A DNA stretch of 53,965 nucleotides from Parcubacteria group bacterium Athens0714_12. Lineage in GTDB: Bacteria > Patescibacteriota > Patescibacteriia > UBA2591 > VMGY01. Below the pieces are notes generated by a model. The model worked only from the letters and a program-made list of their open reading frames with translations, searched no databases and was not told the origin of the DNA. The position numbers were made by a program, and so were the translations under genes. Shown piece by piece: positions 2,682 to 53,965 of this stretch (position 1 is its first letter; the number at the start of each line of letters is the position of its first letter). Where the stretch lies: assembly GCA_007378955.1 (NCBI GenBank), contig VMGY01000002.1, forward strand, positions 1 through 53,965, written 5' to 3'.

Positions 2682-2805
2682 GAGATGGTTACAAAACTCT
2701 TTCGTGGCGAAATTTAGATAGTTTCAGTCAAGGCGAGGAAAACAAGTAAAATGATTTGAGTCGTAGTAGAATTACGGCGAAAATCATTTTGCGCCGTTTG
2801 ACGAA
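2682..2805. mobile_element. Truncated copy of MITE-like family A
   Basis: Reverse-complement match to the right ~125 bp of 37834..38008 (gagatggttacaaaact...aaggcgaggaaa...aattacggcgaaaatcatttt). Confidence 0.8.
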
Positions 2806-2881
2806 TTAATTATACCAAAAATCGCCGCTTGCGACGATTTTATTAAATAACATCATTACACGTTGAATAAAGTTTTGAAGG

Positions 2882-3490
2882 TTATTTTAATTTAAAACTT
2901 TGCGCTGTCTGATAAAATAAATCTTTGTAATTCGGCCAATAATTTTTCGTAGTGTTAAAACTTATTGTCCAAACGTCATTATTTTTTCCTTTAATTAAAA
3001 CAATTAAAACTTTAAAATCCGCCCCTTTTTGATTAACCTCTGATTCTATAAAATAAAAGTTCTTATCGCCAATAACATTGGATTTTTCATCAGTAAAAAT
3101 AATTCCCGGCACAGCTTGGACTAAAGAATCTTTGATGTATTTAACATATTCTTCTTCCGAGCGTCCATTAAAGGTGTCATAGCCAATGGAAAGATAGCTT
3201 TTAAAATTAATCTTTTTCACCGCTTCATCAATAATCTCTTCGTCGGCATTAACTACCATCGCGGAAACTCCGGTCGGCGCCGGCACTTCTCTCCATCCTG
3301 CCGGCTTATTTAAAGAAAAATCAGCTGTTGCTAAAATATTATTTTGATTTGGCTGGCTTTCTTCCCCTGATTTCACTATCTCCTGTTCAGCGCCTGTTAT
3401 TTCATTATTTTTGGAAAAATAAATCCCGATGCCGATTCCCGCGGCTAAGACAATTAAAATTACCGCGATAATTAAAATTTTGTTTTTCAT
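2882..3490 (-). CDS. Membrane-anchored PsbP/DcrB-like protein
   Basis: N-terminal TM, FSLNKPAGW, C-terminal FYQTAQSFKLK pattern. Confidence 0.55.
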   Translation of the reverse strand: MKNKILIIAVILIVLAAGIGIGIYFSKNNEITGAEQEIVKSGEESQPNQNNILATADFSLNKPAGWREVPAPTGVSAMVVNADEEIIDEAVKKINFKSYLSIGYDTFNGRSEEEYVKYIKDSLVQAVPGIIFTDEKSNVIGDKNFYFIESEVNQKGADFKVLIVLIKGKNNDVWTISFNTTKNYWPNYKDLFYQTAQSFKLK

Positions 3491-3566
3491 AAATTATTTG
3501 GATTAATAATAAATCTAATCTCTCCCACCGCAATATTTTTTAATTTTATTTTTTAGCCCGCGAGAA

Positions 3567-6771: not shown

Positions 6772-6913
6772 ATAAATAATTAAAATAATTAATTCCTAAT
6801 TCTAAATAAATCCCAATGACCAATTTCCAAATACTAACTTAAATTCTAAATCTTAATATTAACCCTGAACTTAATTCGGGACAAAATCCAAATATTCAAA
6901 ATAGACGCAAATT

Positions 6914-7160
6914 GTCATTGCTCGCCCTGTTAAATAATTCGCGCAGCGAATTAAAAATCTCTAAAAATTTTATTTAACAGGGCAAGGAGCAACTCGGCCT
7001 TTAGCCGCGAGCGAAGCGTGACGGGACGCAGCAATCACCTTGTCTGCCGCAACTACCACGGGATTGCCGCGCTCCTTCCAGTCGCTCACAATGACAGCGT
7101 GAAAGAATGTCCTTGCGAGAAACCTCATTGGAAAAATCTTTTTGCTCCGCTCAGAATGGC
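6914..7160. repeat. Family D palindrome cluster (GTCATTGCGAG...GCAATC) interrupted by a family C element
   Basis: gtcattg...gcaatcacc, gggattgccgcgctccttccagtcgctcacaatgac. Confidence 0.85.
6925..6982. mobile_element. MITE-like family C element, 58 bp
   Basis: Terminal inverted repeats ccctgttaaata / tatttaacaggg. Confidence 0.75.
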
Positions 7161-7690: not shown

Positions 7691-9475
7691 TTATTCCATA
7701 ATCGCTTTAATTCGCCGCACGCCGGCGCTGGAACTTTTCTCGCTGATAATTTTAAAATAACTTATTTCTGAAGTATTTTCAATATGCGGACCGGCGCAAA
7801 TTTCTTTTGAATAATCGCCAATGGAATAAATTTTAACTATTTTTGGATATTTTTCTTTAAAGAAAGCCAAAACGCCTGATTTAATCGCCTCTTCGTAAGG
7901 CATTTCTTCTGTTTTAATTTCCAATTTTTCTTTGATTTTTTGATTGACGATTTCTTCTATTTTTTTCTTTTGTTCGTCAGTCAATTTTTCCGGATGCGTA
8001 AAATCAAATCTTAATCTTTCCGGCGTTAAATCAGAGCCAGCTTGCTGGATATGTCCGCCCAAAACATCTCTTAACGCTTGATGCAATAAATGAGTCGCAG
8101 TATGCAATTTAGTAATCTTGTATTTTTCCTCTTTTCCTATTTCTCCATTCAAGCCATGGCCGCCAAATTTATTTTTAACGCCGGCTCGGGAAATTTCCTG
8201 ATGACGCGCGAAAAAATCTTGAAAACTTTTTTCATCGATTTTTAAACCTTTTTCTTGCGCCAATTCTTTAGTTAATTCCAAAGGAAAGCCGTAAGTGTCA
8301 TAAAGATGAAAAACTTCTTCGCCGCTAATTACATTGTTAAATTGCTTTATTGTTACATTGTTAAATTGTTTTAAGCCTTTTTCTAATGTTTTGTTAAATT
8401 TTTCTTCTTCGTCTTGTAAAACTACTAAAATATCATTTTCTTTTCGCTTTAACTCTGGATAAGCTTCTTGATAATTTTTTATTACCGCTTGGGCGACAGG
8501 AATTAAAAAATTTTTCGGCAGATTTAAAATTTTACCATATCTGATTACTCGGCGCAAAATCCGGCGTAAAACATATCCCCTATCTTCTTTGCTCGGCAAA
8601 ATGCCGTCAGAAATTAAAAAGCAAGCGGCGCGCGAATGGTCGGCGATAATTCTGAATAATTTAACGTTATTTTGATATTTTTTTTCGCTTAATTCGGAAA
8701 TTTTTTCAATCATCGGCGCAAATAAATCTGTTTCAAAAAGGTCATCCTTATCCTGTTTAATCAAGGCCAATCTTTCCAATCCCATGCCTGTGTCAACATT
8801 TTTCGCCGGCAACTCTTTTAACTTGCCGTCGGCATCCTGAAAATATTCCATAAAAACCAAATTCCAAATTTCTATAAAACGTTGGCAATCTTTGTTTTTA
8901 CAAGCCGGAGAATGGCAATCCTCTCCGCATTTAAATTTTTTACCCAAATCATAATGAATTTCCGAGCAAGGGCCGCAAGGCCCTGAACTGGTTACCGGCC
9001 CCCAAAAATTACTTTCTCTTGAAAGTTTGACAATTCTTTTTTCGTCAACAAATTTTTGCCAAATTTTAAAACTTTCCTCGTCAAAAGGAGTTTCTTTATC
9101 GCCTTCAAAAACAGTAATCCAGAGTTTTTGTTCCGGGATTTTCATTTCTTTGGTGATAAAGTCCCGGGCAAAAACAATCGCCTCTTCTTTAAAATAATCG
9201 CCAAAAGACCAATTGCCCAACATTTCAAAAAATGTCAAATGCCTCAAATTGCCGACACTGTCAATGTCGGAAGTTCTGAAACATTTTTGCGTTGAAACAG
9301 CTCTTTGATAAGGCGGTTCTGTTTCGCCTGATAAATAAGGGACAAACTGCTGCATCCCCGCCGAGGTGAATAAAGCCGTAGGATCAGCTGGAATAAGAGA
9401 AGAAGAAGGCACAATTTGATGCCCTCTCTTCTCAAAAAAAGATAAAAATATTTTTCGCAATTCTTTTGAAGACAT
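7691..9475 (-). CDS. alaS: Alanine--tRNA ligase, short form lacking the C-Ala domain
   Basis: LFTSAGMQQF, HLTFFEMLGNWSFGDYFK, GPCGPCSEI, VDTGMGLER, HTATHLL, EICAGPH, AGVRRI. Confidence 0.95.
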   Translation of the reverse strand: MSSKELRKIFLSFFEKRGHQIVPSSSLIPADPTALFTSAGMQQFVPYLSGETEPPYQRAVSTQKCFRTSDIDSVGNLRHLTFFEMLGNWSFGDYFKEEAIVFARDFITKEMKIPEQKLWITVFEGDKETPFDEESFKIWQKFVDEKRIVKLSRESNFWGPVTSSGPCGPCSEIHYDLGKKFKCGEDCHSPACKNKDCQRFIEIWNLVFMEYFQDADGKLKELPAKNVDTGMGLERLALIKQDKDDLFETDLFAPMIEKISELSEKKYQNNVKLFRIIADHSRAACFLISDGILPSKEDRGYVLRRILRRVIRYGKILNLPKNFLIPVAQAVIKNYQEAYPELKRKENDILVVLQDEEEKFNKTLEKGLKQFNNVTIKQFNNVISGEEVFHLYDTYGFPLELTKELAQEKGLKIDEKSFQDFFARHQEISRAGVKNKFGGHGLNGEIGKEEKYKITKLHTATHLLHQALRDVLGGHIQQAGSDLTPERLRFDFTHPEKLTDEQKKKIEEIVNQKIKEKLEIKTEEMPYEEAIKSGVLAFFKEKYPKIVKIYSIGDYSKEICAGPHIENTSEISYFKIISEKSSSAGVRRIKAIME

Positions 9476-9611: not shown

Positions 9612-11261
9612 TTAGTTATTTAACTTCACCACTTCTCCCGGCTTTATTTTTTTGGGACCATTTTTTTCATTTTCATTATTTTCATCTGCTTCTTCTCTTT
9701 TTTTATGAAAAGGCGTTGGTTTTTTTTCCAAAATTTCTTTTAAACTGATTTCCGACGTTTCTTTTTGGATTTGAGGAGCTATTTCCGCTTTTATCGGATT
9801 TTTAGGGGTTTTTATTTCTCCTTTTCTCGCTTTTTGCAAACAATCTTTGCAAAAAATCGGCCTCACATTATCCGGCTGAAAAGAAACTTTCGTTTCCTTC
9901 CCGCAATTCCAGCAAACTGAAGAATATTTATACGCGGAACTTTTATCTTCCTCATCCTCCTCGCCATTGTTATTATTATCGTCTTTTTCGCTCCAGCGCA
10001 TTATTTTGTCTTCCACTTCACTTTTCGGCTTGGCATATCTTTCCCGCGAAATCCTTAAAATCTTTTCCGTATTAATAGTTTCGGGATAAGGAAAGGGAGG
10101 CAAAGTGCTGGCGGAGAAAGCATCGCTGGTAATTCCGTCAATCATTAATTTTAAATAAATATTGTATTTCGGCAAATTAACGAGATCATTAACATTGAAA
10201 ATCGGCTCAAATTCGCGCTCTAAAAATTCCGCGTCCTGGGCTCCGACTCTGAAAGTAATAATTGTTCCCACATTGCCAAAAACCGCGTCCCTGACTTCTT
10301 CCGGCACTTGAGTAATATACTGATGAGCAATAATTAAATTAAGGCGGTATTTTCGCGCCTCTGATAAAATATCGGCGAAACTGTCGGTAGCGAAATTCTG
10401 GAACTCATCCACGTATAAATAAAAATCTTTTCTTTTTTCTTCAGCTATGTCAACGCGCGACATCGCCGCGAGCTGAATTTTCGTCACCATCATCGCGCCC
10501 AACAAACTGGATGCGTCCTCTCCGATTGCGCCTTTAGAAAGGTTTAAAATTAAAATTTTCTGTTCGTCCATTGCCTCTCTGATGTCAAAAGTCGTTTTTG
10601 TTTGGCCGACAATATTCCTAATTAAAGCGGAAGATAAAAATTGTCCGACTTTATTTTGAATCGGCGCCACAGCCTCGGATTGGAAGCGGTCGGGATATTT
10701 GATAAATTCTTCCGTCCAAAATGATTTAACCATTGGGTCGGTAATATTGGCAACCACTTTTTTGCGATATTCCTTATCCACCAAGATTCTCATTATTCCC
10801 AACAAGGTGCTGTTCGGGTATTCAAGCAAGGCTAAAATTGCGTTTCTTAAAACATATTCCAATCTCGGTCCCCAGCTTTCCGACCAAATCTTTTTAAATA
10901 CGCCGACTAAACCCGAAGCTACTCTTGACCTGTGTTCAGGGTCCACCTTTTCCACCACATTAAAAGCAATGGGATTGCTTAAATCAGCCGGATTAAAATA
11001 AATCACATCATTGATCCGATTTGAAGGGATAAAATCCAAAACTCTTTGGGCGAATTCTCCGTGCGGGTCAACAATCGCCACGCCATGCCCGGCTTGAATA
11101 TCGGCAATGGCCATATTTTCCAATAAAACAGTTTTACCCATGCCAGTTTTGCCAATCACATACATATGCCTTCTACGGTCATCTCTTTTAATGCCAAAAT
11201 TTTTACGCTGATTGCGAAAATTGGTTTCGGCAAAAATTGTGATATCATTATTATTATTCAT
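9612..11261 (-). CDS. VirD4/TraD/HerA-like P-loop ATPase with C-terminal CxxC-x17-CxxC domain
   Basis: Walker A GKTGMGKT, DPHGE, Walker B LYVDEFQNF, EARKYRL, CWNC...CKDC. Confidence 0.85.
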   Translation of the reverse strand: MNNNNDITIFAETNFRNQRKNFGIKRDDRRRHMYVIGKTGMGKTVLLENMAIADIQAGHGVAIVDPHGEFAQRVLDFIPSNRINDVIYFNPADLSNPIAFNVVEKVDPEHRSRVASGLVGVFKKIWSESWGPRLEYVLRNAILALLEYPNSTLLGIMRILVDKEYRKKVVANITDPMVKSFWTEEFIKYPDRFQSEAVAPIQNKVGQFLSSALIRNIVGQTKTTFDIREAMDEQKILILNLSKGAIGEDASSLLGAMMVTKIQLAAMSRVDIAEEKRKDFYLYVDEFQNFATDSFADILSEARKYRLNLIIAHQYITQVPEEVRDAVFGNVGTIITFRVGAQDAEFLEREFEPIFNVNDLVNLPKYNIYLKLMIDGITSDAFSASTLPPFPYPETINTEKILRISRERYAKPKSEVEDKIMRWSEKDDNNNNGEEDEEDKSSAYKYSSVCWNCGKETKVSFQPDNVRPIFCKDCLQKARKGEIKTPKNPIKAEIAPQIQKETSEISLKEILEKKPTPFHKKREEADENNENEKNGPKKIKPGEVVKLNN

Positions 11262-22131: not shown

Positions 22132-22137
22132 AATTGT

Positions 22138-37684: not shown

Positions 37685-37728
37685 TCAGCAGGGTAGGTTG
37701 AATGACGTCATCCAACCTACCCTGCTGA
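37685..37728. repeat. GTAG-type REP-like palindrome in the rplJ 5' UTR
   Basis: tcagcagggtaggttg-aatgacgtcatc-caacctaccctgctga. Confidence 0.75.
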
Positions 37729-37741
37729 TTTAGTCATAAAA

Positions 37742-37825
37742 TTAAAAATCTGCATTACCGCAGATTTAAAAGACTTTCGCCTAAATAGGATATTAAGCCT
37801 TTCAGCGCCTATTTTCTACGGCAGA
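37742..37825 (-). promoter_or_regulatory. L10 ribosomal protein leader RNA with attenuator hairpin
   Basis: Minus strand CCGTAGAAAATAGG...TTAATATCCTATTTAGG (L10-leader pattern) then AAATCTGC-GGTAAT-GCAGATTTTT. Confidence 0.8.
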
Positions 37826-37833
37826 TATTGATT

Positions 37834-38008
37834 GAGATGGTTGCAAAACTGCTTCGGCTGCAATTTGCTATTTTCAGCCAATGCTTCGTCAAGCTGCGTA
37901 AAATGATTTTCGCCGTAATTCTATTACGGTTCAAATCATTTTACTTGCTTTCCTCGCCTTGGCTGAAACTATCTAAATTTCGCGACAAAACAGTTTTGCA
38001 ACCATCTC
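37834..38008. mobile_element. MITE-like family A, complete (175 bp)
   Basis: 18-bp perfect TIR gagatggttgcaaaactg / cagttttgcaaccatctc; ATT on both flanks. Confidence 0.9.
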
Positions 38009-41191: not shown

Positions 41192-41820
41192 TTATTTTCT
41201 TTGATTAAGGGCACAAAAACAAAACCAGGATAATGTTTTTCTTTATATTGATTCTCGCCGATTTTTTCCAATAAAATCAATTCTTGCGAAGAATCGCCAA
41301 CCGGCATAATCAGCCTTCCACCTATTTTTAATTGGTCTTTTAAGGCGGTTGGGATTTGAGCCGCGGCGGCTGCCACATGAATCTTATCAAAAGGCGCTTC
41401 GTCGGGCAAGCCCTTGCTTCCATCCAAACAAAAAAATTTTATTCTGCCATTTTTGATAAAATTATATTTAGACGCGTTTTTCTCGCCCATTTCCTTAAGT
41501 TCCGGGATTCTTTCCACCGCGCAAACTCTTCCTTTTTTACCCGTTATGTAAGCCAATAAAACCGCTGTCCAGCCCGAACCAGAACCAATGTCTAAAATTT
41601 TCTCTCCTTCCTTCGGCTGAAGCAATTCCAACATAAAGGCGACTGTCAAAGGCTGTGAAATAGTCTGGTTGTGGCCAATAGGGAGGGGAATATTCAAGTG
41701 AGCGTCTTTTTTAAAATCCTCGGGCGTGAAATCCTCTCTTTTTATTTTTAAAAAAGCCTCTATGATTTTAGGCGTTTTGAGATAATTTTGACTGATTAAT
41801 TCTTTGATTAAATTTTGCAT
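41188..41820 (-). CDS. pcm: Protein-L-isoaspartate O-methyltransferase
   Basis: QTISQP, LDIGSGSGW, APFDKIHVAAA, QLKIGGRL, FVPL. Confidence 0.95.
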   Translation of the reverse strand: MQNLIKELISQNYLKTPKIIEAFLKIKREDFTPEDFKKDAHLNIPLPIGHNQTISQPLTVAFMLELLQPKEGEKILDIGSGSGWTAVLLAYITGKKGRVCAVERIPELKEMGEKNASKYNFIKNGRIKFFCLDGSKGLPDEAPFDKIHVAAAAAQIPTALKDQLKIGGRLIMPVGDSSQELILLEKIGENQYKEKHYPGFVFVPLIKENK

Positions 41821-41842
41821 AAATACATTAGATATCTCTTAT

Positions 41843-42164
41843 GCCGTTGCGAGGAGCCACGGGATTGCTTCGTCGGCTGCTGCCTCCTCGCAATGACACT
41901 CTTTTGTTTGCCGTCGCGTCCCCACTCTGTCATTGCGAGGAGCGACACCAAGGAGCGACGAAGCAATCCCGTTTCAATTTGTCCATTGCGTTTCACTTTG
42001 CCGTCGCATCCCCCCTGTCATTGCGAGGAGCGACCTCAAGAAGCGACGCGGCAATCCCGTTGTCCGTCGCAACCACCACGGGATTGCTTCGTCGGCTACT
42101 GCCTCCTCGCAATGACAAACAAGAGTGTGTCATTGCGAGCGACTGGAAGGAGCGCGGCAATCCC
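41843..42164. repeat. Family D cluster (about 6 units, mixed orientation)
   Basis: Repeated gtcattgcgaggagc..gcaatccc and gggattgcttcg..ctcgcaatgac. Confidence 0.92.
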
Positions 42165-42196
42165 GTTCATTAACCGCAAAAGCATAGTTATTAAAT

Positions 42197-43000
42197 TTAT
42201 TTAAATATATAAATAATTATTATTCCCGCCAAAATAAAACGATAAATGGCGAAAGGAATCAGAGAGTGATTTTTTAAATATTTCAAAAAATATTTAACGC
42301 AAAAATAAGAAGAAATAAAAGCGGATAAAAATCCTAAAATAAAAATCATCCTTTGGCTAAAAGACAGCGAGGCGAAAGAAAAATCAAAAACTTTTTTTAT
42401 CCCGGCGCCGAAAATTATTGGGACTGCCAAAAGAAAAGAAAATCGCGCCGCCGCTTCCCTGTTTAAATTTCTTCCCAATCCTGCTATAATGGTAATGCCG
42501 GACCTGGAAACCCCGGGGATTAAAGCGCATACCTGGCTGAAACCGATAATCATCGCGCTTTTAAAATTCAAATTTTCCAAAGAATCTTTTTGTGAAGATA
42601 TTTTTTCAAAAATAATAAAAAGGATGCCGCCGATTATTAAAGCCATAGCCACGCTGATTAAAGAAGAGAAAAATTTTTCTATCACACTTTCAAAGAAAAA
42701 ACCGGAAATGGCGGCGGGCAAAGAAGCGATTAAAATAAAATAAGCGATTTTTTGCTCGGAATCATGAGAATCTATTTTTTTCAGAAAAGCTTTTATGTAT
42801 TTCGCGAGATCGCTTCTGAAAAAAATAATCAAAGCCAATAAGCTGCCTAAATGAAGCGCCACGTCAAAAGTTAAATTGTCCGCCAAGTCAAAAATTAAAA
42901 ATTGGTGAAATAAAATCAAATGACCTGAACTGGAAACAGGCAAAAACTCGGTTAAGCCTTGGATAATTCCTAAAATTATTGAATAAAAATATAAAATCAT
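42197..43000 (-). CDS. uppP: Undecaprenyl-diphosphate phosphatase
   Basis: GIIQGLTEFLPVSSSGHL, PGVSRSGITI, AARFSFLL; ATG 43000 preferred. Confidence 0.95.
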   Translation of the reverse strand: MILYFYSIILGIIQGLTEFLPVSSSGHLILFHQFLIFDLADNLTFDVALHLGSLLALIIFFRSDLAKYIKAFLKKIDSHDSEQKIAYFILIASLPAAISGFFFESVIEKFFSSLISVAMALIIGGILFIIFEKISSQKDSLENLNFKSAMIIGFSQVCALIPGVSRSGITIIAGLGRNLNREAAARFSFLLAVPIIFGAGIKKVFDFSFASLSFSQRMIFILGFLSAFISSYFCVKYFLKYLKNHSLIPFAIYRFILAGIIIIYIFK

Positions 43001-43417
43001 ATGTCTTATCAAATGTTTTTAGTCCCTATTTTAGCGGGCCTAATCGCCCAAATTATTAAATTATCAACTGACGGAATAAAAGGCAACTTCAAATGGAAAA
43101 ATTTTATTTCTGATTACGGCAAAATGCCCTCTTCCCATACCGCTTTTGTGGTCGCGTTAGCCGCGGAAATGGCTTTATTTCAAGGATTTAAAAGTTCGGA
43201 ATTCGCGATTTCTTTAATTTTAGCTCTTGTTGTTATCCGCGATGCCACCGGCTTAAGGCGCAATATGGCAAGACAAAATAAACTTTTAAATAAAATTTGC
43301 TCAAAAATTGGATTAAAAGAAGAACAGTTGGAAGAAACGCTGGGACATACGCCCTTGGAAATATTTTTTGGCTGTCTTTTGGGGATAAGTTTGGTTTTGG
43401 TATTTTATTTTATTTAG
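43001..43417 (+). CDS. Divergent PAP2 (DUF212/YuiD-like) membrane protein
   Basis: AQIIK, GKMPSSHTAFV, VIRDATGLRR, LGHTPLE. Confidence 0.88.
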   Translation: MSYQMFLVPILAGLIAQIIKLSTDGIKGNFKWKNFISDYGKMPSSHTAFVVALAAEMALFQGFKSSEFAISLILALVVIRDATGLRRNMARQNKLLNKICSKIGLKEEQLEETLGHTPLEIFFGCLLGISLVLVFYFI

Positions 43418-43512
43418 AGGCTAAAGCCTCCAATCCTTTTTAAGCAACCAAAGGCTAAAGCCTCTAATCCCTTTCCGCTGTTCTCTTTTAGGGACTAGAG
43501 ACTTTAGTCTCT
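43416..43512. repeat. Family E REP-like palindromes (three units)
   Basis: agaggctaaagcctccaatcc, aggctaaagcctctaatccc, gggactagagactttagtctct. Confidence 0.8.
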
Positions 43513-43516
43513 CTTT

Positions 43517-45235: not shown

Positions 45236-45300
45236 AATTTTTAAATTTTAGTGGTCGCGAATATTTGTCATTCTTTTACGCTGTCTTCATAGAGAGAAAC

Positions 45301-45575
45301 GGGATTGCCGCGCTCCTTCCAGTCGCTCGCAATGACACTCTCTTGTTTGCCATCGCGTCCCCCCTGTCATTGCGAGGGAGCCCGCCCTCGGGCGACCGCG
45401 GCAATCTCGTTGTCTATCGCAACCACCACGGGATTGCTTCGTCGTCGGACTTGTGTCCTCCTTCTCGCAATGACAAACAAGAGAATGTCATTGCGAGGAG
45501 CCCAGCAGGGCGACGCGGCAATCTCGTTGTCTATCGCAACCACCACGGGATTGCTTCGCTATCGCTCGCAATGAC
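45301..45575. repeat. Family D cluster (5 units)
   Basis: Alternating inverted units with duplicated spacer gttgtctatcgcaaccaccac. Confidence 0.92.
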
Positions 45576-45603
45576 CGCGCAAAAAAATGACAAAAAGAAA
45601 AAC

Positions 45604-46662
45604 TCAAAATGACATCGCTTTCACTTCCCGCGCAATCATTAATTCTTCATTGGCGGGAATAGTAAAAATACTGACATTTTTTAAAATATCCATTTTCTGG
45701 CAAATTTTATTTCTGGTGAGCGGCTTGCCTGTCCCGACTGTTCCGGTGAATACCAGGGCGTCTATGCCATTTAAAATTGCGCAATAAGCGCCAATATATT
45801 TTTTCGCGCGATAAATAAAAATTTCAAAAGCTAATTTTGCTTTTTCGTCGCTTTTCATCGCTTTTAATAAGTCTAAAAAATTTTCACAGCCGGACAATCC
45901 TTTGATTCCACTTTGATGATTTAAAAGTTCGTCTATTTTATTTAAATCAAATCCTTTATTTTTCATTAAATATAAAATAATGCCCGGGTCTAAATCTCCT
46001 GGCCTGGTACTCATCACTAATCCTTCCAAAGGCGTAAAGCCCATGCTGGTATCTATCACCTTCCCCTTATCAATCGCGGCAATGCTTGAACCGCCGCCCA
46101 AATGGCAAGTAATTAATTTTAATTTATTTAACGGCTTCTTTAATTTTTGGGCCGCTTCCTGGGCCGCGTATTGATGCGAAATGCCGTGGAAGCCGAATCT
46201 TTCTATGCCTTGTTCATAAAATTTATAAGGCAAAGCGTAAATTTTTGCTTTATCAGGCAAATCTTTAAAAAAAGCAGTGTCAAAAACCGCGAAATTAGAA
46301 ACTTTCGGCAAATATTCCAAGCATGCTTTAATGCCCTCTAAATTATATGGATTGTGCAAAGGCGCCAATTGATTATATTTTTCCAATTCAAGCAAAGTTT
46401 CTTTAGTCACTTTTCTTGTTTCCTTAAATTCTTTTCCGCCATGCACTACCCGATGGCCGACAGCCATAATTTTTGACAAATCGCCGATTTCTCTCAATAC
46501 TTGCTTTAATGCTTGTTGATGGCTTTTTAAATGCTGAAAATTATTTTCTTTAATTAATTTTAAATTTTCCGCTTCAAAAAGCTTATATTTCAAAGAAGTA
46601 CTGCCGCAATTAATGACCAAAATTTGCCGCGACCCGTTAGAAATTTTATAATCTTGTAACAT
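45604..46662 (-). CDS. ackA: Acetate kinase
   Basis: ILVINCGSTSLK, GHRVVHGG, APLHNP, VFDTAF, GFHGISH, CHLGGGSS, TSMGFTPLEG, NEE. Confidence 0.93.
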   Translation of the reverse strand: MLQDYKISNGSRQILVINCGSTSLKYKLFEAENLKLIKENNFQHLKSHQQALKQVLREIGDLSKIMAVGHRVVHGGKEFKETRKVTKETLLELEKYNQLAPLHNPYNLEGIKACLEYLPKVSNFAVFDTAFFKDLPDKAKIYALPYKFYEQGIERFGFHGISHQYAAQEAAQKLKKPLNKLKLITCHLGGGSSIAAIDKGKVIDTSMGFTPLEGLVMSTRPGDLDPGIILYLMKNKGFDLNKIDELLNHQSGIKGLSGCENFLDLLKAMKSDEKAKLAFEIFIYRAKKYIGAYCAILNGIDALVFTGTVGTGKPLTRNKICQKMDILKNVSIFTIPANEELMIAREVKAMSF

Positions 46663-46711: not shown

Positions 46712-46746
46712 CTTGGGCATATTTTAATTTTTTAAATCATAGAGCA

Positions 46747-46771
46747 ATTATCGAGGTTCGACCTCGATAAT
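46747..46771. repeat. Family F palindrome
   Basis: attatcgagg-ttcga-cctcgataat. Confidence 0.8.
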
Positions 46772-46807
46772 AAAACCCCGATAATAACCTCATTTTTTTA
46801 TCAATTA

Positions 46808-47359: not shown

Positions 47360-47377
47360 AGAATTCTTTTTAAATAC

Positions 47378-47635
47378 GGGATTCTTCGGCTGTTGCCTCA
47401 GAATGACATTGTTTTTGTCATCCTAAATGTCTTCTACGCTGTCATCCTGAACGATAGTGAAGGATCCCGTGTCTATCGCCTTCCCCTCGGGATTGCTTCG
47501 GCTATCGCCTCGCAATGACCGCGTAAAAGAGTGTCATTGCGAGGAGTGAATGAAGCGGAGCGGAATGAACGACGCGGCAATCCCGTCGCTCACCCTGTCA
47601 TTGCGAGGAGCCCAGCAGGGCGACGCGGCAATCCC
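47378..47635. repeat. Family D cluster including GTCATCCTGA and CTCAGAATGAC variants
   Basis: gggattcttcg..ctcagaatgac, gtcatcctgaacgatagtgaaggatccc, plus standard units. Confidence 0.9.
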
Positions 47636-47656
47636 GTTTTCTACCGCTTTCCCCCA

Positions 47657-50600
47657 TTACCGCCAAAAAAATTTTCGTTTAACTTTAAGCTCTATATTCT
47701 GATTCACCGGCCGACCTTCTAAAACTTCAAATCTTTTTGAATTATACTCTTCATAGCCATTTTTTACAACTTTCAAATAATATTTTCCTTCTGGCGCTAA
47801 AAATGAATATTGCCCTGTTTTATCCGTAATTTGCGGATTTTTTTGGTCGTAGATTTCCGCGGGCCAAATTTCAAATTCATTAGTTATTTCATTATAGCGA
47901 TAAAGCGTAACAACAACGTCTTCTAAACGTATTTCTCCCCTCTTGTCTTGGGTATAAATATAGCCCTCCGGGTCAATTAAAATTTCTATTTCTAAAATTT
48001 TTTTATCTCCGTCGGCGTAATCAATTAAAGTTTTTAAAGAAAAACTGCCTGCTACCGGCGGCAATTGGATATCAGCTTCATAAATCCCGTCGCCGTCTGA
48101 ATCAGTATAGACATATTCCCCTACTAACCATTCTTTAGCCAAGGCCTGATTAATCGCCAATTCTTCGGCTTGGGCAAAAGGAACGCCAAGCATCATTGCG
48201 AGAAGCGGCCGTTCTTTCTTTGTCATCGCGCCCCCATTGTCATCCTGAGGGAGGACGCCAGCAGGCGACTGACCGAAGGATCCCGTGTCCATTCCAATTC
48301 CCGCGGGATTGCTTCGGCTATCGCCTCGCAATGACAGCGTGGGGACGCTCTCTAAACTCAAAGATTTCACAAAAATCAACTGCGCTTTAATTTCCTTAAC
48401 CTGCTTAGCTGGCTTGATAAAAGACTTGAATTGCGAACCGGCTATTAAAACCGCTTTTTCTTTTTCTACGCTCTTTATTTTAATATCCCCGTAATTGGAA
48501 ACCAAAATAATTTTTTCCGGTTCAATTATTTCCGGCGGCACGCTCGGCGTTTTCACTAAAACTGGCGGCGCGGGCTTTTCTTTTTCCGGCCCTGCTGGCG
48601 CGAACTTAAAAACAACAGCTATTTTTTGAGCCGCGTTCTTTAAATTGCTTACAGCCAACAAAACATTTTCCCGAATATTATCAGCCAATTTTATAACTCC
48701 ATTTTTAATTTCTAAAACAAATTTAACCGCTCCATTTTTAATCGCAAAAACGAATTTTGCCGCCGCGTTCTGAAAAGCGATTTTCGCGTTAACCAAAACA
48801 TAAAACCCTCTTTTGCCGGCGTAAAAAACTTTTTGCCCGCCGTTTAAAACCAGTTCTATGGTTTTTTGTATTATTAAAACAAACTGCTTGGCGGTTTTTT
48901 CTAAAATTCGGCCTAAAAAAGCCAATGAATCATAAACGGTTTTTTGAAACCTGTAAACAACCAACCGCCATCCTTTTTTCAGCCCAAACGCGAATTTAGA
49001 TGAAAAATAACTAAAATTTTGGCCCGCGCCTTTCGCGATTCTGACAGTCGTCCAATAAAATCCTTTTGACAAATCTTTGCCCGCTTCTTTAAAATCCTGA
49101 AAAGTTTCTTTAAACGCCAAAGCCGGATTTTTAGCGAGCTCTTTTAATTGAGGAATAAAATCTTGGGCAAATTCTTTCTTAAAATAATCGGCGCTGTCTT
49201 TGATATTTTCTTTAAAACCCCGCCAAGCTTTTTTAAATTCTTTGTTGATTGAAATTTCCGGCAATTTAATATCGGGAAATTTTATCTCCGGAAATTCAAT
49301 TTCGGGAAATTTTATTTCGGGAAATTTTATCTCCGGAAATTCAATTTTAATCGGTTCCGGAGCGCCCGGCGTTTCAACAGGCGGGATAACGGGCGGGATA
49401 TAAGGAATCGGGAGCAACGGCTCAACCGGCAAGGGCTTCGCGGGCTCTCCGCCGGGCGGCGCAATCGGGATAATCGGAAAAGGCGGCTTGATTTCAGGCG
49501 GAACAATCGGGCGCTCTTCCGCCGCGGTTTGAATAATAAAATTAGATTTTAAAGATTCGCTTTGATTTCCCGCTTCATCTTGAGCTTTAATTTCCACGCC
49601 GTAAATTCCGTTTTCCAATGGCGCGGGAATTTCATACTGCCAATTTCCGTAATTATCCGCCATTGTTTGATAAAAAAGAAGCGGGATAAAATCAAATTCC
49701 TTTTTATTTTTAGAAACTAAAGTTTCTACTCCTCCTCCCGAAGGGCTGTTTTCCTTTGAGGGATTAGAGGCTTCAGCCCCTTCCTTTGAACTTTCCTTTG
49801 AGGGATTAGAGGCTTCAGCCTCTTCCCCTAACGCCCCCAAACCAATTAAAACTTTTGAATTCGCTTCCGCTTTGCCCTTCAGCAAAGGCGTGTTATCGGC
49901 TAAAACCTCGCCGGATTTAGGAAAAATCAATTCCGGCGGGGCAGGCGCGATCGTATCCAAAATAATAGAATCAAAAACCACCGGCGAAACTTTTCCGTAA
50001 ATATCATAAAATTTAACATAAATAGTTTTTACTCCTTCGCCGCTTTTTAAAATCCATTTTTTAATCTCAATATACGATTCTTGGCTCGCCCCCTCAAAAT
50101 CAGAAGCTCCTTCGGAAATAGCCATCATTTTACTGTCAATCCCGCCGCTCAAATTCAAAGCCACTTCCCTGCTGTTTGTATACTTCAATCCTTGATTGAT
50201 TAAAACGGAAAAACCTTTTGGCGCTGGCGGATTATATGGAATAAAAGCTCCGGGGAAAGAGCCGCCGGAAGGAACCACGGTCGCCGGTCTCGCGCTCAAT
50301 GGCCGCCAATCAGTCAAGACTTGAACATTAGAGTTAGCGCAGGAATTGTCATTCATACAGGAAAAACTGATTTTTCCGGTAATGTCGCCATTGGCGTAAC
50401 CCCTCAAACGGCCTTCTCTGTCAATATAAATGCCTTCAAAATTAATCCAGCCGACATTTTCGCCCCAAGCGTAACCGGATAAATTTCCTTCGCCGTCATT
50501 TCTTACTCCGCTGGTTGAAGGATTTAAATTTATCCAGCCGATATTTTCTCCCCAAGCGTAGCCGGAGACAGTGTCATCAGTAATCCGGACGCTTCCCGCG

Positions 50601-50752
50601 CCAAAATTGAACCAACCAAAATTCTCGCACCACGCGTATTTATATATTGAATCAATAGCGCCTTCAGTTTCGGAAGCCAAAGCAAAATTAAGAGGCGTTA
50701 ATTGCCCCAATAATAAAAATAAAAATAAAATACAGCAAAACCTTTTAAACAT
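47657..50752 (-). CDS. Large exported protein: GYAWGENxGWI repeats, Ig-like domain, Pro-rich linker, carboxypeptidase-regulatory-like C-terminus
   Basis: Signal peptide; 3x YAWxENxGWxN; DNTPLLKG..GNWQY..DEAGNQS; (KFPEI)n; DPEGYIY..QKNPQITDKTGQYSF. Confidence 0.75.
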   Translation of the reverse strand: MFKRFCCILFLFLLLGQLTPLNFALASETEGAIDSIYKYAWCENFGWFNFGAGSVRITDDTVSGYAWGENIGWINLNPSTSGVRNDGEGNLSGYAWGENVGWINFEGIYIDREGRLRGYANGDITGKISFSCMNDNSCANSNVQVLTDWRPLSARPATVVPSGGSFPGAFIPYNPPAPKGFSVLINQGLKYTNSREVALNLSGGIDSKMMAISEGASDFEGASQESYIEIKKWILKSGEGVKTIYVKFYDIYGKVSPVVFDSIILDTIAPAPPELIFPKSGEVLADNTPLLKGKAEANSKVLIGLGALGEEAEASNPSKESSKEGAEASNPSKENSPSGGGVETLVSKNKKEFDFIPLLFYQTMADNYGNWQYEIPAPLENGIYGVEIKAQDEAGNQSESLKSNFIIQTAAEERPIVPPEIKPPFPIIPIAPPGGEPAKPLPVEPLLPIPYIPPVIPPVETPGAPEPIKIEFPEIKFPEIKFPEIEFPEIKFPDIKLPEISINKEFKKAWRGFKENIKDSADYFKKEFAQDFIPQLKELAKNPALAFKETFQDFKEAGKDLSKGFYWTTVRIAKGAGQNFSYFSSKFAFGLKKGWRLVVYRFQKTVYDSLAFLGRILEKTAKQFVLIIQKTIELVLNGGQKVFYAGKRGFYVLVNAKIAFQNAAAKFVFAIKNGAVKFVLEIKNGVIKLADNIRENVLLAVSNLKNAAQKIAVVFKFAPAGPEKEKPAPPVLVKTPSVPPEIIEPEKIILVSNYGDIKIKSVEKEKAVLIAGSQFKSFIKPAKQVKEIKAQLIFVKSLSLESVPTLSLRGDSRSNPAGIGMDTGSFGQSPAGVLPQDDNGGAMTKKERPLLAMMLGVPFAQAEELAINQALAKEWLVGEYVYTDSDGDGIYEADIQLPPVAGSFSLKTLIDYADGDKKILEIEILIDPEGYIYTQDKRGEIRLEDVVVTLYRYNEITNEFEIWPAEIYDQKNPQITDKTGQYSFLAPEGKYYLKVVKNGYEEYNSKRFEVLEGRPVNQNIELKVKRKFFWR
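48192..48335. repeat. Family D cluster translated within 47657..50752
   Basis: Encodes SLRGDSRSNP...SFGQSPAGVLPQDD...LLAMM. Confidence 0.85.
49711..49823. repeat. Family E palindromes translated within 47657..50752
   Basis: gggattagaggcttcagcc twice and tagaaactaaagtttctactcc; encode EAEASNPSKE / GVETLVS. Confidence 0.8.
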
Positions 50753-50807
50753 TTTTTTGAACCGCTAAATACGCGAAAAAATTATTTTAAGGCGCCTCTT
50801 TTATATT

Positions 50808-50844
50808 GTCATTGCGAAGAGTCAGCAGGCGGCGCGGCAATCCC
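50808..50844. repeat. Single degenerate family D unit
   Basis: gtcattgcgaagagtcagcaggcggcgcggcaatccc. Confidence 0.8.
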
Positions 50845-50912
50845 GTTTTATTACTCTTCTCTCAAATCCGGCATTACTAAAAATTCTTTTTTGTTTTTTA
50901 AAAATACGAATA

Positions 50913-51006: not shown

Positions 51007-51183
51007 AACGCCTAAAATTGATCTAGGGACTAAACCAATAAAAATATATGCTTGTTCAATAAAATATTTTTCCCTAAGCCATACGCGAAAACGGCGGTAA
51101 TCTAAATTCCATCCAAGCCCTTTAACGCCCTTATGCAAATTTGCTCCGTCAATATAGGCAAAATTGTTTTCTTTTCTTTGCAT
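50968..51183 (-). pseudogene. Internally deleted NYN/LabA (DUF88, PIN-like) nuclease
   Basis: N-terminal AYIDGANL..LDY..F..WL..KY..AYIF; 71 aa only, lacks central and SGDGDF acidic motifs. Confidence 0.75.
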
Positions 51184-51235
51184 TTTTTAAATTATTAATA
51201 ATTTTCATCAGAATTCTTCTATCACCTCTCACTTT

Positions 51236-51418
51236 GTCATTGCGAAAATCCTCGGGATTGCGGAGCCTGTCCTGAGTGAAGCGAAAGGATCTTCCTGCTG
51301 CCTCCTCGCAATGACAAACAAGAGTGTGTCATTGCGAGGAGCGGAACGCAGTGGAGCGACGCGGCAATCCCGTTTCAATTTGTCATTGCGAGGAGCTATC
51401 AGGCGGCGCGGCAATCCC
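51236..51418. repeat. Family D cluster with nested family H hairpin; supplies the stop codon of the upstream large gene
   Basis: gagcctgtcctgagtgaagcgaaaggatc inside a D unit; TGA at 51383..51385 lies in caatgac. Confidence 0.88.
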
Positions 51419-53965
51419 GCCATCTCCCGATTCCTGATTCATAATTCCTGATTCATAATTCAAACTCCCGCACTCGCCTTTTATTTTTACCCACTCGCCA
51501 TTTTCAACCCAAGTGCAATAAATTTCCCCGGTTGCTTGGTCAACCATTTCCAATTTTTCAATCCGCGCTTTTTTAGCGAAAAACTTGTCCGTAACAATTT
51601 CTTTAAACTTAACCAAACCATTCTGAATCCAAATGCCGAAATTCTCTAATTTTTCCAAAACTACGGCAAAAATTCCTTTTTTTATTTCTTCTGATTCTAA
51701 CATCTTTAATTGCTGTTCAAAGTCTGTTAAAGGAATATTTTTTAATTCTTCCGGCGGCGCGTAATGCCCGGGATGAACTAAAACTAAAACCTTGCCTATA
51801 GCGATGTCATTGCGAGGAGTCCCGCTGTCATTGCGAGCGGAGCGAAGCAATCCCGTTTCCTCATCATCACCATTAAAATCCCCTAAAGCCGTGCCAATAA
51901 TCGGACCGGCTGAAATCGCTTTTGCCGCCGCGCCCGGCAAAGAAGAAAAAGTCAGATAATCGCCTTGCTTAATTTCGCCATTCTCCAAAGAAACTTTAAC
52001 AGGGACTCTTCCCGATAAAGTCATTAAATAAGCATGGTCGGGATATTGCTCTTTTAAATATCCGGCGGCCTGAAATGAAGAGCCGGAAGTAATTATGCCA
52101 ATCAAAACTTCATTCTTTCCTTTTTGCGCCTTTTCCGCCAATGGCTCATCAGACGGGAAATCTACTCCCCATCCTTCTTCCTCCCCATCTCCGAGGGTGA
52201 GGGGCGCCACTGCTACCAAATCCCCATCCTCCAAATCTTCTTTAGACAAAATATATTCTGCGTAGTCAGGAGCAGAATTCGCGGTCTGCGGACCTTTAGT
52301 TATCCAACTGCCGCCAATATCCAAAGAAGCCAAAGTAGTGGTACTGCTTTGAAAACTTAATTTATTTCCCGCAGAAGCAGGCGTCCATTGGATAAATGGA
52401 TTGGCTGAATTTAAGGTAAGGTTGCCAGTGCTCGTAGCATTTCCCGTAATAGAATCAACGACAAACTTGGTATTGCCCGAGCCGTCTTGAATAACAAAAG
52501 CCGTGGACGAGGCGATATTCATCAGCAGACCGCCGGAAGCGGTAAAGCCGGACAAAAATGTTCCTGCTTGGGATTGGAGTTCAAAGAAATTGGCGGTTGG
52601 CGAAGTGCCTGAATGCGTTATCATGATGCCAGTGGTTGATTCATTGGTGGTGGAGGCGTGAAGCATTGCCCCCGGGGCAGTTGTCCCGATGCCGACGTTG
52701 CCGCCAACAGTTAAATTGTTTGAACCATCAATTATAACAGGGTCGCTTATACGCACCGCTGTCCAATCTTGAAACTGAAATTCATCAGCATCCGTGCTTC
52801 CATCAAAACGAAAATGTCCTGTATTGGTTGGTCTATAATATGTTCCTATCATTCCCCAACTATTGTCTGCTTTCCCCCTAATAGTCCCTGCAAAAGTTGG
52901 AGTATAAGAAAGTTTACCAAAATAGATATTATTGCTATCAACCATAAATATCTCAGTGTTATCGTAAGACCGTAACCTTAGACGGTAAATTGAACCATCT
53001 AAATGTGTAGATATCCCAGCTGAACCAGAATTAAAAAATTTGATAACAGTTGTTTCTGTAGTCTCTTGTGGAAATTTTAAAGAACCATTTACTGTCAAAG
53101 CGTGAGAAGGCGTCGTCGTCCCGATGCCGACATTGCCCGTCTGCGAATTAACAAATAAGGTTGGTCGGTCTGCCGAAGTAGTTGAGGAGACGGCAAAATT
53201 GCCAGTGGTGGTAGAATTGCCTTGGATATAAACATTCCCGCCGAAGTTAGCAGTCGTGGTGGAATTTGGCTGGGCTGTTCCCGTGGCGAGAGAGGTGACG
53301 ACTTGGAGCGTCCCCGTGGTAGTGGAATTTCCGGAATTATACACATCCCCGCCAATCCAGATTTTGCCGTGATTATTGGTGGGCTGGGTTGTTCCGATTA
53401 CTAATCTGCCCGTGCTCGTCGCATTGCCTGTAATAGAATCAACGACAAATTTGGTATTGCCCGAGCCGTCCTGAATGACAAAAGCCGTGGTTGAAGCGAT
53501 ATTCATCAGCAAGCCGCCTGAAGCAGTAAAGCCGGACAAAAATGTGCCTGCTTGGGATTGGAGCTCAAAAAAATTGGCGGTTGGCGAAGTGCCTGAATGC
53601 GTTATCATGATGCCAGTGGTTGATTCATTGGTGGTGGAAGCGTGAAGCATTGCCCCCGGAGCGGTCGTCCCGATGCCGACGAGGCCTGAAGTATTCTTAA
53701 TAACCATTGGAATGGATGTATAATTAGTATAAAAATTAATATCCTTATTATACCCACTTCCAATTTGCACCAATGCGCCACTATATCCGAAAAACGCCCT
53801 ATCTTCAGAAAAAGATATTATCTTCTCAACATTACCAGTTCCAACAGAAATTTGTCGTGTAGACGCCATCGTCCCAATCCCCACTCTTCCCGTCTGCGAA
53901 TCAACAAATAAGGTTGGTCGGTCTGCCGAAGTAGTTGAGGAGACGGCAAAATTGCCAGTGGTGGT
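51383..53965 (-). CDS. Large fibre-like repeat protein (VGIGT repeats) with intramolecular-chaperone-like C-terminal domain; 5' end outside window
   Basis: Frame stays open to the window end (TTTGNFAVSSTT...); repeated VGIGTT and GNxTxTG; DYAEY...GRVPVKVSLENGEIKQGDYLT..IIGTAL. Confidence 0.8.
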   Translation of the reverse strand, partial: TTTGNFAVSSTTSADRPTLFVDSQTGRVGIGTMASTRQISVGTGNVEKIISFSEDRAFFGYSGALVQIGSGYNKDINFYTNYTSIPMVIKNTSGLVGIGTTAPGAMLHASTTNESTTGIMITHSGTSPTANFFELQSQAGTFLSGFTASGGLLMNIASTTAFVIQDGSGNTKFVVDSITGNATSTGRLVIGTTQPTNNHGKIWIGGDVYNSGNSTTTGTLQVVTSLATGTAQPNSTTTANFGGNVYIQGNSTTTGNFAVSSTTSADRPTLFVNSQTGNVGIGTTTPSHALTVNGSLKFPQETTETTVIKFFNSGSAGISTHLDGSIYRLRLRSYDNTEIFMVDSNNIYFGKLSYTPTFAGTIRGKADNSWGMIGTYYRPTNTGHFRFDGSTDADEFQFQDWTAVRISDPVIIDGSNNLTVGGNVGIGTTAPGAMLHASTTNESTTGIMITHSGTSPTANFFELQSQAGTFLSGFTASGGLLMNIASSTAFVIQDGSGNTKFVVDSITGNATSTGNLTLNSANPFIQWTPASAGNKLSFQSSTTTLASLDIGGSWITKGPQTANSAPDYAEYILSKEDLEDGDLVAVAPLTLGDGEEEGWGVDFPSDEPLAEKAQKGKNEVLIGIITSGSSFQAAGYLKEQYPDHAYLMTLSGRVPVKVSLENGEIKQGDYLTFSSLPGAAAKAISAGPIIGTALGDFNGDDEETGLLRSARNDSGTPRNDIAIGKVLVLVHPGHYAPPEELKNIPLTDFEQQLKMLESEEIKKGIFAVVLEKLENFGIWIQNGLVKFKEIVTDKFFAKKARIEKLEMVDQATGEIYCTWVENGEWVKIKGECGSLNYESGIMNQESGDGGIAAPPDSSSQ
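51806..51854. repeat. Family D units translated within the fibre-like gene
   Basis: Encodes GLLRSARNDSGTPRND. Confidence 0.85.
52424..53681. repeat. 274-bp near-identical direct repeats at 52424..52697 and 53408..53681
   Basis: Both encode VGIGTTAPGAMLHASTT...DSITGNATSTG; offset 984 nt. Confidence 0.92.

Follow-up and report, generated by a model that had tools for sequence, protein, structure and literature searches.

The 54-kb stretch of DNA analysed here (the window) is the whole of contig C7 in the genome of an ultra-small groundwater bacterium of the Patescibacteria (candidate phyla radiation, CPR). It carries six or more families of short repeats, among them those called A, B, D, E, F and G below, and these are probably several independent, non-autonomous mobile families of three mechanistic classes, each dependent on an enzyme encoded elsewhere. 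An earlier note on this DNA had counted at least eight families, a number that is reached only if the stem variants of family D are counted separately. In the proposed mechanism A, B and G would be classical miniature inverted-repeat transposable elements (MITEs), that is, internally deleted insertion sequences (IS). Family D would be a TGTC-tagged unit of the repetitive extragenic palindrome (REP) type, cognate to an Ssn-type GIY-YIG nuclease encoded on contig C5. Family E, perhaps together with F, would consist of short perfect hairpins of the kind that flank Y1 (HUH) genes resembling REP-associated tyrosine transposases (RAYTs) in the phylum. The pattern is real, but the elements that make it up, miniature insertion sequences and hairpins of the REP type, are of kinds already known. 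The earlier note had named as a refutation that all families were already catalogued with known autonomous partners; that the kinds are known counts against novelty and not against the mechanism.

The source genome has 826,950 bp in 27 contigs, with completeness given as 100% and contamination as 0.65%. Contigs of this genome are labelled C, comparison genomes G and fetched loci L. The sequencing runs that contain the window are groundwater metagenomes of one study, and other Patescibacteria/CPR assemblies are public records with the same repeat families. BLAST of the window against the whole genome finds a second copy for 6,481 bases in 38 intervals, and about 6% of the genome DNA is short repeats. 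The window itself has no transposase, RAYT or GIY-YIG gene, as previously noted: C7 has no match in whole-genome profile searches with GIY-YIG, Y1_Tnp, the TnpB zinc ribbon, DDE_3, rve, DDE_Tnp_1 and DDE_Tnp_1_2, and Pfam scans of 42 open reading frames (ORFs) in the window find neither a transposase nor a nuclease. Rfam at gathering thresholds matches only a tRNA and an L10 leader in the window and leaves the repeat families unmatched.

The same profile searches find candidate enzymes outside the window. There are four small GIY-YIG genes (one on C27, one on C5 and two on C15) and three Y1 genes (C18, C22 and C12; PF01797). C22 has one DDE_Tnp_1 gene and an rve fragment, and C14 has one rve gene. 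For TnpB the one match, on C20, is weak and below threshold. Three enzyme classes are represented among the candidate partners outside the window, in line with the suggestion that several mobilisation mechanisms may act in trans. The likely helper enzymes have their genes on other contigs of this genome or in other bacteria only. Long copies around an ORF, which the earlier note had proposed to look for, were found as DDE elements (on C22 and at loci L139 and L243), and a GIY-YIG gene was found in D arrays.

Family D and the GIY-YIG gene on contig C5

The D unit reads TGTCATTGCGAG, then 12-25 nt, then GCAATCCCG. Its parts are a TGTC tag, an ATTGC/GCAAT outer stem, a variable GC-rich inner part and a CCCG tail; in the predicted fold the tag is unpaired, and 5-6 contiguous pairs are followed by an irregular inner part. 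The genome has 106 copies of the 11-mer box GTCATTGCGAG, where its length alone would predict 0.39, and 24 of these are in the window. The exact sequence TGTCATTGCGAG has 100 copies in the genome. On a map of the boxes along the window (box map), about 28-30 units fall into 10 loci, much as in the earlier description of 11 loci and roughly 30 units. Units occur in both orientations, with a spacer of about 10 nt in head-to-head and about 19 nt in tail-to-tail pairs, and form arrays of up to six units, in which they stand mostly as alternating pairs of the two kinds. The head-to-head core recurs five times (repeat family D4), and one such dimer (45427-45528) has a folding energy of -30.4 kcal/mol (z -5.9). 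A four-copy family C with terminal inverted repeats (TIRs) had also been described; no separate family of this kind was found, and its copies are probably the D head-to-head dimers (5 copies).

Other units have the D layout with a different stem. One type reads TGTCATCCTGA...AAGGATCCCG, and its tag-and-stem word GTCATCCTGA occurs 13 times in the genome; further stem variants are an ATTCT-stem unit at 47377-47408 and CCTGTCCTGAGTGAAGCGAAGGATCCC. The units formerly set apart as family H exist (47377-47470 and 48239-48285), but they fit the D type with ATCCT and ATTCT stems.

The GIY-YIG gene on C5 lies inside D arrays, with five D units to one side of it and three to the other. It encodes a single-domain protein of 93 aa (counted from the second ATG) that matches PF01541 only, over residues 4-77. 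The 80 best loci matching this protein, with 51-69% identity, were taken as the sample of homologues; they span Desulfobacterota, Planctomycetota, Chloroflexota, Omnitrophota, Nitrospirota, Bacteroidota, several CPR groups and others. The box GTCATTGCGAG, with at most one mismatch, is present within 3 kb at 66 of the 80 loci, and the 400 kb examined hold 284 boxes where about 6.5 are expected. A box lies within 300 nt on both sides of the gene at 55 loci, on one side at 10 and on neither at 15, compared with 3 of 115 control windows placed 1.5 kb away. The D-like unit at these loci reads YGTCATTGCGAG, a variable GC-rich hairpin and CGWRGCAATCYC, with short to long versions across phyla.

The association also appears in an even sample of 401 genomes of the phylum, in which a gene was called at an E value of at most 1e-12. 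The exact D 12-mer occurs in 93 of the 401; the source genome has the most copies (100), followed by genomes with 41 and 40. The GIY-YIG gene is present in 33 of the 38 other genomes with at least five boxes and in 95 of the 362 with fewer, and no test is given for these counts because related genomes are not independent.

The C5-D pair resembles the Ssn system. SsnA is a 94-aa GIY-YIG protein that cuts single-stranded DNA (ssDNA) beside the repeat NTS, CGTCATTCCCGCGMAVGCGGGAATCYRG, and ssn genes are flanked by NTS-type repeats in many phyla (Chenal et al. 2025, PMC11893778). The main text of that paper does not mention Patescibacteria; its supplementary lists may already contain the D/C5 subclade. 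Both systems have a single-domain GIY-YIG protein of nearly the same length, a repeat on both sides of the gene and an association that extends across phyla. The layout YGTC, AT.. stem, ..AT and C-rich tail is common to NTS and D. The D stem is ATTGCGAG...GCAAT, whereas that of NTS is ATTCCCGCG...CGCGGGAAT, and D adds a long variable insert. As a link test, 120 loci with an exact NTS were fetched (a 0.86-Mb database), and two of them encode a homologue of the C5 protein. One, L368, has a GIY-YIG gene with 39.5% identity to the C5 protein over 86 aa (E 3e-22 in that database), with an exact NTS adjoining its start and an NTS-like unit after its stop. Chenal et al. themselves take E < 1e-10 to the N. 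meningitidis protein as the mark of SsnA homology. Because of the flanking association and the homology at L368, D is read, from sequence, as the putative cognate repeat of a distinct Ssn-type GIY-YIG subclade.

The repeat itself also resembles the REPs tagged with CGTC or TGTC. Di Nocera, De Gregorio and Rocco (2013, PMC3733652) describe these as having an unpaired tag, stems of 8-9 bp that open with A-T pairs, loops of 4-5 nt, a short tail and an arrangement in head-to-head dimers. The same source places Neisseria dRS3 and the Rickettsia palindromic elements RPE-4 and RPE-6 in this class and describes it as lacking a dedicated transposase, and the parallel with Rickettsia palindromic elements and REPs that had been drawn for this DNA holds in this respect. 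D shares with the class the unpaired TGTC tag, the A-T-opening stem, a short C-rich tail, head-to-head dimers, large clusters, mostly intergenic positions with some intragenic copies, and the lack of a DDE-type or RAYT partner. It differs in having a 5-bp outer stem with a 12-25-nt variable GC-rich part in place of the 8-9-bp stem and 4-5-nt loop, and a CCCG tail in place of CCA; the comparison covers the features published for the CGTC families (CGTC-1 to CGTC-4). A full-text literature search for the D box returned only unrelated primer matches, as judged by titles and the openings of abstracts.

By analogy with SsnA and NTS, the C5 nuclease would recognise and cut D as ssDNA, and this cutting would either spread the repeat or serve the host. 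It is possible, though on the unlikely side, that D and perhaps E and F are host-serving sites, namely terminators, mRNA stabilisers or Ssn cutting sites that control ssDNA uptake or recombination as NTS does in Neisseria. In favour of such sites, 84 of 108 boxes genome-wide lie outside the stop-to-stop ORFs of 150 aa or more, and these ORFs account for 83% of the genome. The head-to-head dimers fold strongly and stand after or between genes, the gene-repeat pair is kept across phyla, and SsnA/NTS modulates natural transformation (PMC11893778). However, 24 of the 108 boxes are inside the long ORFs, units are in frame in two genes and one unit lies within a MITE. The copy number also ranges from 0 to 100 among the 401 genomes, which fits the expansion of a parasite better than a conserved regulon. 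The host-serving and selfish readings of D are compatible and do not exclude each other.

The arm-bearing GIY-YIG mini-elements on C27 and C15 were considered as parents of the window families and rejected, since their arms have no copy on C7.

Families A, B and G and their DDE-type relatives

Families A, B and G resemble bacterial MITEs derived from DDE insertion sequences (derivatives of the IS5 family and of the IS982 type). The three families are 120-180 bp long, have TIRs matching those of a full-length IS, target duplications and no ORF, form hairpins in their bodies and occupy intergenic sites beside starts and stops. The Correia/NEMIS elements are a known bacterial comparison. The differences are that two of the three families (A and B) have no transposase in the host, and that the host is a CPR bacterium with a genome of 0.83 Mb. 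The two copies each of A and B that had been described in the window are confirmed (Table 1). Family G may lie outside the families lettered in the earlier note, whose letters cannot be mapped onto the present ones. Literature searches combining Patescibacteria or CPR with MITE, REP, REPIN or RAYT gave no description of A, B or G and no paper on the subject, as judged from titles.

Family G has the termini CTTTGAATTACGAAAT and a long internal hairpin, and BLAST finds 13 other copies in the genome. The TIR core TTGAATTACGAAA occurs 55 times in the genome with at most one mismatch, including both ends (4679 and 5676) of an insertion sequence at C22:4675-5690. This IS is about 1,015 bp long, and its intact 267-aa ORF matches DDE_Tnp_1_3 with a score of 106 bits. 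Of 16 paired G-type copies, the C22 IS included, 15 have a direct repeat of 5 nt or more at their ends, compared with 66 of 240 mismatched flanks. The duplication is mostly 6-7 nt (range 6-8 bp) and lies at one fixed offset. Since G shares its ends and its duplication with the C22 IS, it is a MITE with an autonomous parent in the same genome. G would thus derive from a DDE_Tnp_1_3 element making 6-8-bp duplications, which we take to be IS982-like, and it would be the only one of the three with its transposase in the source genome. A G copy at C20:2880-3011, outside the window, appears to hold a D-variant unit (…GGGATCCTTCGCTGGCGCTCAGGATGACA…) and would add a second nesting case to the one in the window.

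The terminal repeat of family A is GAGATGGTTRCAAAACT, and the genome has 11 full copies of this family and about 11 solo ends. The truncated copy at 2682-2810 has 99% identity over 124 nt to a full copy at C11:3956-4079. A 3-bp duplication is perfect in 8 of the 11 full copies (ATT, ATA, TAA, AAT or TTT) and matches at two of three positions in the other three. At L139:2817-3724, from Kuenenbacteria, a 908-bp element has both A TIRs (with one and two mismatches) around two ORFs matching DUF4096 and DDE_Tnp_1/DDE_Tnp_1_2, and this two-ORF arrangement is the layout of the IS5 family. A would accordingly be descended from an IS5-family element of two ORFs (DUF4096 and DDE_Tnp_1_2) with 3-bp duplications.

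The A TIR occurs in only 2 of 55 genomes of the order, the source genome with 31 matches and G016, which belongs to another family, with 29. The presence of A in two genomes only, with about 30 TIR matches in each, suggests recent and probably horizontal spread. In a species-representative collection of 596 Gb, paired A copies occur in Falkowbacteria, Gribaldobacteria, Saccharibacteria and other CPR records; single matches in unrelated bacteria are at the level of chance for a 17-mer in 596 Gb. G016 contains both A and B (e.g. G016:C116:1193-1399, locus L230), and the other 53 genomes of the order are without A. The public record of G016 is labelled Gammaproteobacteria and looks mislabelled. 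The joint presence of A and B in the source genome and in the distant G016 suggests horizontal exchange between co-occurring CPR bacteria.

Family B has the terminal repeat TAGACCTGCTGCGYAATAAT, and copies of about 161 bp are found in many CPR records. TA is present on both sides in 10 of 11 copies from other genomes and in most copies of the source genome. In another Patescibacteria genome, a 1,040-bp element (L243:6772-7811) with B-like ends has a 309-aa ORF that matches DDE_Tnp_4 (92 bits) and HTH_Tnp_4. B, with its TA flanks, would be derived from an element of this DDE_Tnp_4/HTH_Tnp_4 type. Both A and B would have been moved by a transposase that is now lost, unassembled or only transiently present.

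The rve-type gene at C14:21774-22823 was rejected as a parent of A or B because an unrelated GC-rich inverted repeat flanks it. A solo A terminal repeat of about 19-21 nt also lies in frame in a small GIY-YIG gene with inverted arms on C15 (C15:41921-42238; L023:1422-1739). It adds approximately EFCNHLK to the protein, so that one mobile element is scarred by another.

Hairpins E and F and the sites of insertion

The E hairpin is ATCGAGGTCGAACCTCGAT. One unit folds with z -4.2, and the genome has ten such hairpins, three of them at the Y1 gene on C12; the units read TATCGAGGTCGAACCTCGATA and have no GTAG tag. The hairpin TATGGAGGTTGAACCTCCATAG flanks the C12 gene (C12:1509-2192, L026) on either side and occurs a third time within it, in frame. 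The in-frame copy (…SQTMEVEPQYLKK…) lies between the N-terminal part and the HUH motif, and Pfam covers residues 73-151 only. Hairpins of the form GTGCCAGGCAC stand on either side of the Y1 gene on C18. In NCBIfam, all three Y1 genes match 'REP-associated tyrosine transposase' (NF047646) best, at scores below its cut-off. Homologues occur in 126 of the 401 sampled phylum genomes, often in several copies. Thirty loci with homologues of the C12 gene were considered for a flank test and three at contig ends were dropped; at 25 of the remaining 27, the two 260-nt flanks have a word of at least 12 nt in common, mostly a lineage-specific hairpin.

The F hairpin, TAGAGGCTnnAGCCTCT, has two loci in the window and one on C15, and a pattern scan counts six hairpins in the genome. 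The two loci each of E and F that had been described are both present (Table 1). F is perhaps in the class of RAYT hairpins, which is a guess. E and the C12 and C18 hairpins resemble REP/REPIN-RAYT systems (Nunvar 2010; Bertels and Rainey 2011, PMC3116915) in being short perfect palindromes that flank a Y1 (HUH) gene. They differ in the absence of the GTAG tag from E, in the small copy number (10 E-type hairpins) and in Y1 scores below the RAYT cut-off. Classical RAYTs are single-copy genes, in contrast to three Y1 genes in the source genome and up to 7 in other genomes of the phylum. E, and perhaps F, would be moved by single-strand 'peel and paste', by analogy with the work on IS200/IS605 and RAYTs that Chenal et al. 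cite.

Insertions would land mainly in very short operon spacers, and some would be tolerated in frame in the linkers of surface proteins or as replacements of last codons. The spacer between hrcA and grpE is an example. Among 7 order-level relatives, tblastn coordinates put the two genes next to each other (about 20 nt or less apart) in 6 and some 290 nt apart in the seventh; in the window the spacer is 158 nt long, is filled by B, and has the hrcA stop in the right terminal repeat of B. Nesting of elements, as described before, is seen in the second B copy of the window (30884-31067), which contains a D variant absent from all nine other B copies compared (three in the source genome and six in other CPR genomes). 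No clean target duplication was seen around this nested unit, and the insert replaces a few bases.

The claim that elements become protein sequence or supply start and stop codons holds in part. Units of D and F are in frame in window genes and stops lie in B and D, but no demonstrable case of an element that supplies a start codon was found. In the ORF at 47657-50752, the D-coded residues 805-854 are open in only one of three frames. The homologue in G005 has a 56-residue gap over this segment, and a paralogue on C12 has other D units at the same place. In the ORF at 51383-53965, the second surface-protein gene with D in frame, the last 16 codons and the stop are within D. From the duplications, the identity of copies, the patchy distribution and the nesting, we infer that the families are mobile.

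Table 1. Repeat elements and related features of the window (positions in the 54-kb contig; '.' for no strand given)
Feature	Position	Strand	Context	Basis
A MITE, truncated, one TIR (at 2682)	2682-2810	.	17 nt upstream of YgjP-like gene start	
D locus, one full unit and fragments	6913-7119	.	secA-hpf spacer	box map, Pfam names
D tail-to-tail pair	19969-20076	.	dnaK stop / dnaJ start	box map
G MITE, right terminus degraded	22027-22142	.	grpE stop / dnaK start	fold -29.3 kcal/mol, z -7.2
B MITE filling hrcA-grpE spacer	22662-22824	.	hrcA stop 22809-22811 inside right TIR	
Inverted heptamer (NNRGTTR) tracts	27437-27627	.	bracketing tRNA-Glu(CTC) 27469-27545 (-)	tract scan
E array	29012-29139	.	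ftsI-type penicillin-binding protein (PBP) stop / Mur ligase start	
B MITE filling spacer, nested D variant 30905-30945	30884-31067	.	DivIC-like stop (31068) / PBP start (30873)	
D cluster	36436-36571	.	convergent 685-aa ORF and rplL	box map
44-nt palindrome, single-copy	37685-37728	.	between L10 leader and rplJ	arms 95% complementary
A MITE, full 175 bp, ATT target duplication	37834-38008	.	abuts 5' end of L10 leader match 37734-37839	
D array, ~6 units	41842-42168	.	uppP stop to pcm start	box map
F hairpins, three units	43401-43515	.	after recJ stop	
D array, ~6 units including head-to-head dimers	45293-45592	.	ackA stop to recJ start	box map, fold
E hairpin locus	46738-46801	.	pilin-like gene stop / ackA start	
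Mixed D locus: ATTCT-, ATCCT- and ATTGC-stem units	47377-47654	.		box map
D units in frame	48191-48340	-	residues 805-854 of 1031-aa surface-protein ORF 47657-50752	one open frame
F units, two tandem, in frame	49750-49826	-	residues 309-335 of ORF 47657-50752	coding check
Solo D unit	50799-50853	.	upstream of ORF 47657-50752 start	box map
D array, holds CCTGTCCTGAGTGAAGCGAA variant	51234-51432	.	last unit is C-terminal 16 codons and stop of ORF 51383-53965	
D unit in frame	51805-51857	-	residues 703-721 of ORF 51383-53965	box map

Counter-evidence, neighbouring features and meaning

Several results count against the reading of the repeats as non-autonomous mobile families served by the three enzyme classes. 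For D, single units fold like shuffled sequence (z -0.7, -0.7 and +0.4). The GIY-YIG gene is lacking in 5 of the 38 D-rich genomes, and in 95 others it is present although boxes of the exact sequence are few or absent. The published SRM motif HGTCWYN(0-2)YYVSBRHN(0-5)WNVSBRGN(0-2)RNCYNB has one match in the genome, which is not a D unit, and 0-4 matches in ten shuffles. For B, the left end of the L243 element has 5 mismatches in 20 to the query TIR and the right end has 1, and the TA beside B may be either a 2-bp duplication or part of the terminal repeat. For E and F, the E stem in the window is CGAGG where the C12 stem is GGAGG (a compensated pair), the Y1 genes score 61.2, 78.4 and 42.6 bits against the RAYT cut-off of 80, and F flanks no Y1 gene. 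No empty site was obtained at nucleotide level; the closest genomes compared belong to other families of the order (dnaK at most 77% identical), and the best RecJ relative in metagenomes is 52% identical. Lastly, a transposase homologue for A or for B is absent from the source-genome assembly and from G016, and the current mobility of both families is unproven.

The absence of these transposases is also what would be expected if the families were dead relics of old bursts or of vertical inheritance with nothing now moving them, which is unlikely. The many solo or truncated ends, such as 2682-2810 and the roughly 11 solo A TIRs, and the C15 GIY-YIG gene interrupted in frame by a solo A terminus are of the same kind. 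However, A copies are up to 99% identical, and the distribution of A among the 55 order genomes points to recent, probably horizontal spread. For G the transposase gene is intact, within an IS that has matching ends and a target duplication of its own, and assemblies of genomes from metagenomes often drop multi-copy insertion sequences.

A stronger form of the reading as mobile families is quite doubtful. In it the Ssn-type GIY-YIG nuclease would be the mobiliser of TGTC-tagged hairpins, making a third system of single-strand hairpin transposition beside IS200/IS605 and RAYT, and A and B would have spread here and in G016 by an enzyme from outside the cell lineage. If GIY-YIG does mobilise, the nuclease subclades would have diversified together with the stems (ATTCCCGCG in Neisseria, ATTGCGAG here, and the ATCCT and ATTCT variants), and the source genome would be an extreme case, with the most boxes among the 401 sampled genomes of the phylum.

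Positions 1-99 of the window are 100% identical to C19:3821-3919, the end of that contig; the two probably join in the assembly graph or meet there at a repeat. That the repeats are artefacts of assembly or binning, through chimeric joins or contaminating DNA, is nevertheless very improbable: the genome is a draft of 27 contigs whose ends sit in shared sequence, but the elements lie inside the contig between intact housekeeping genes of conserved order, contamination is low, contigs of three runs (from one study, two of which may be the source of this DNA) contain 85-98% of the sampled words of 19900-29800, and the same families are found in many independent assemblies.

The window genes are mostly housekeeping genes and nearly all are on the minus strand. 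They include secA, alaS, a TrwB/TraG-like ATPase, dnaJ-dnaK-grpE-hrcA, a Mur ligase, a transpeptidase, DivIC, mraW, mraZ, rplJ, rplL, an MltG-like gene, pcm, uppP, recJ, ackA, a pilin-like gene and two large surface proteins. The GC content is 31-44% in 2-kb steps. The ATPase (9612-11261) is like coupling proteins of the TrwB/TraG type, has a treble-clef zinc finger and stands among housekeeping genes; it may be related to the type IV secretion genes of the same genome. The 1031-aa surface-protein ORF also has a 15-nt tandem repeat of 5.7 copies (49253-49347), which encodes a (K/E)FPEI pentapeptide run (residues 469-500) and is a coding repeat and not a mobile element. Plus-strand ORFs of 97-129 aa lie wholly or largely within GC-rich D arrays (41815-42204, 45265-45612 and 36461-36754). 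These ORFs are probably spurious and a trap for gene callers.

Two further kinds of repeat had been described. The 7- and 8-mer repeat tracts are borne out: NNRGTTR tracts of at least four units number 27 in the genome and 0 in five shuffles, and similar 7- and 8-mer tracts occur at 32413-32445 and 8326-8372. A GTAG-type palindrome was not found as a repeat. The only candidate is a GGGTAGG palindrome at 37685-37728 (centre TGACGTCA), which is single-copy, since BLAST against the genome returns only itself and its own reverse complement. It stands between rplJ and the L10 leader, whose Rfam match scores 45 bits against a threshold of 44 bits, and it may be part of the leader or an attenuator in this lineage.

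For annotation, the units create spurious GC-rich ORFs (e.g. 41815-42204), alter the ends of genes and add peptide segments to real proteins. That one distant genome of the order also has A and B suggests transfer between ultra-small bacteria that occur together. The published SRM motif misses the pair of D and its GIY-YIG gene, which occurs in many phyla and could be used to test whether Ssn nucleases spread repeats or only police ssDNA. CPR/Patescibacteria genomes are taken as streamlined, and selfish DNA of three enzyme classes persists here even at 0.83 Mb.

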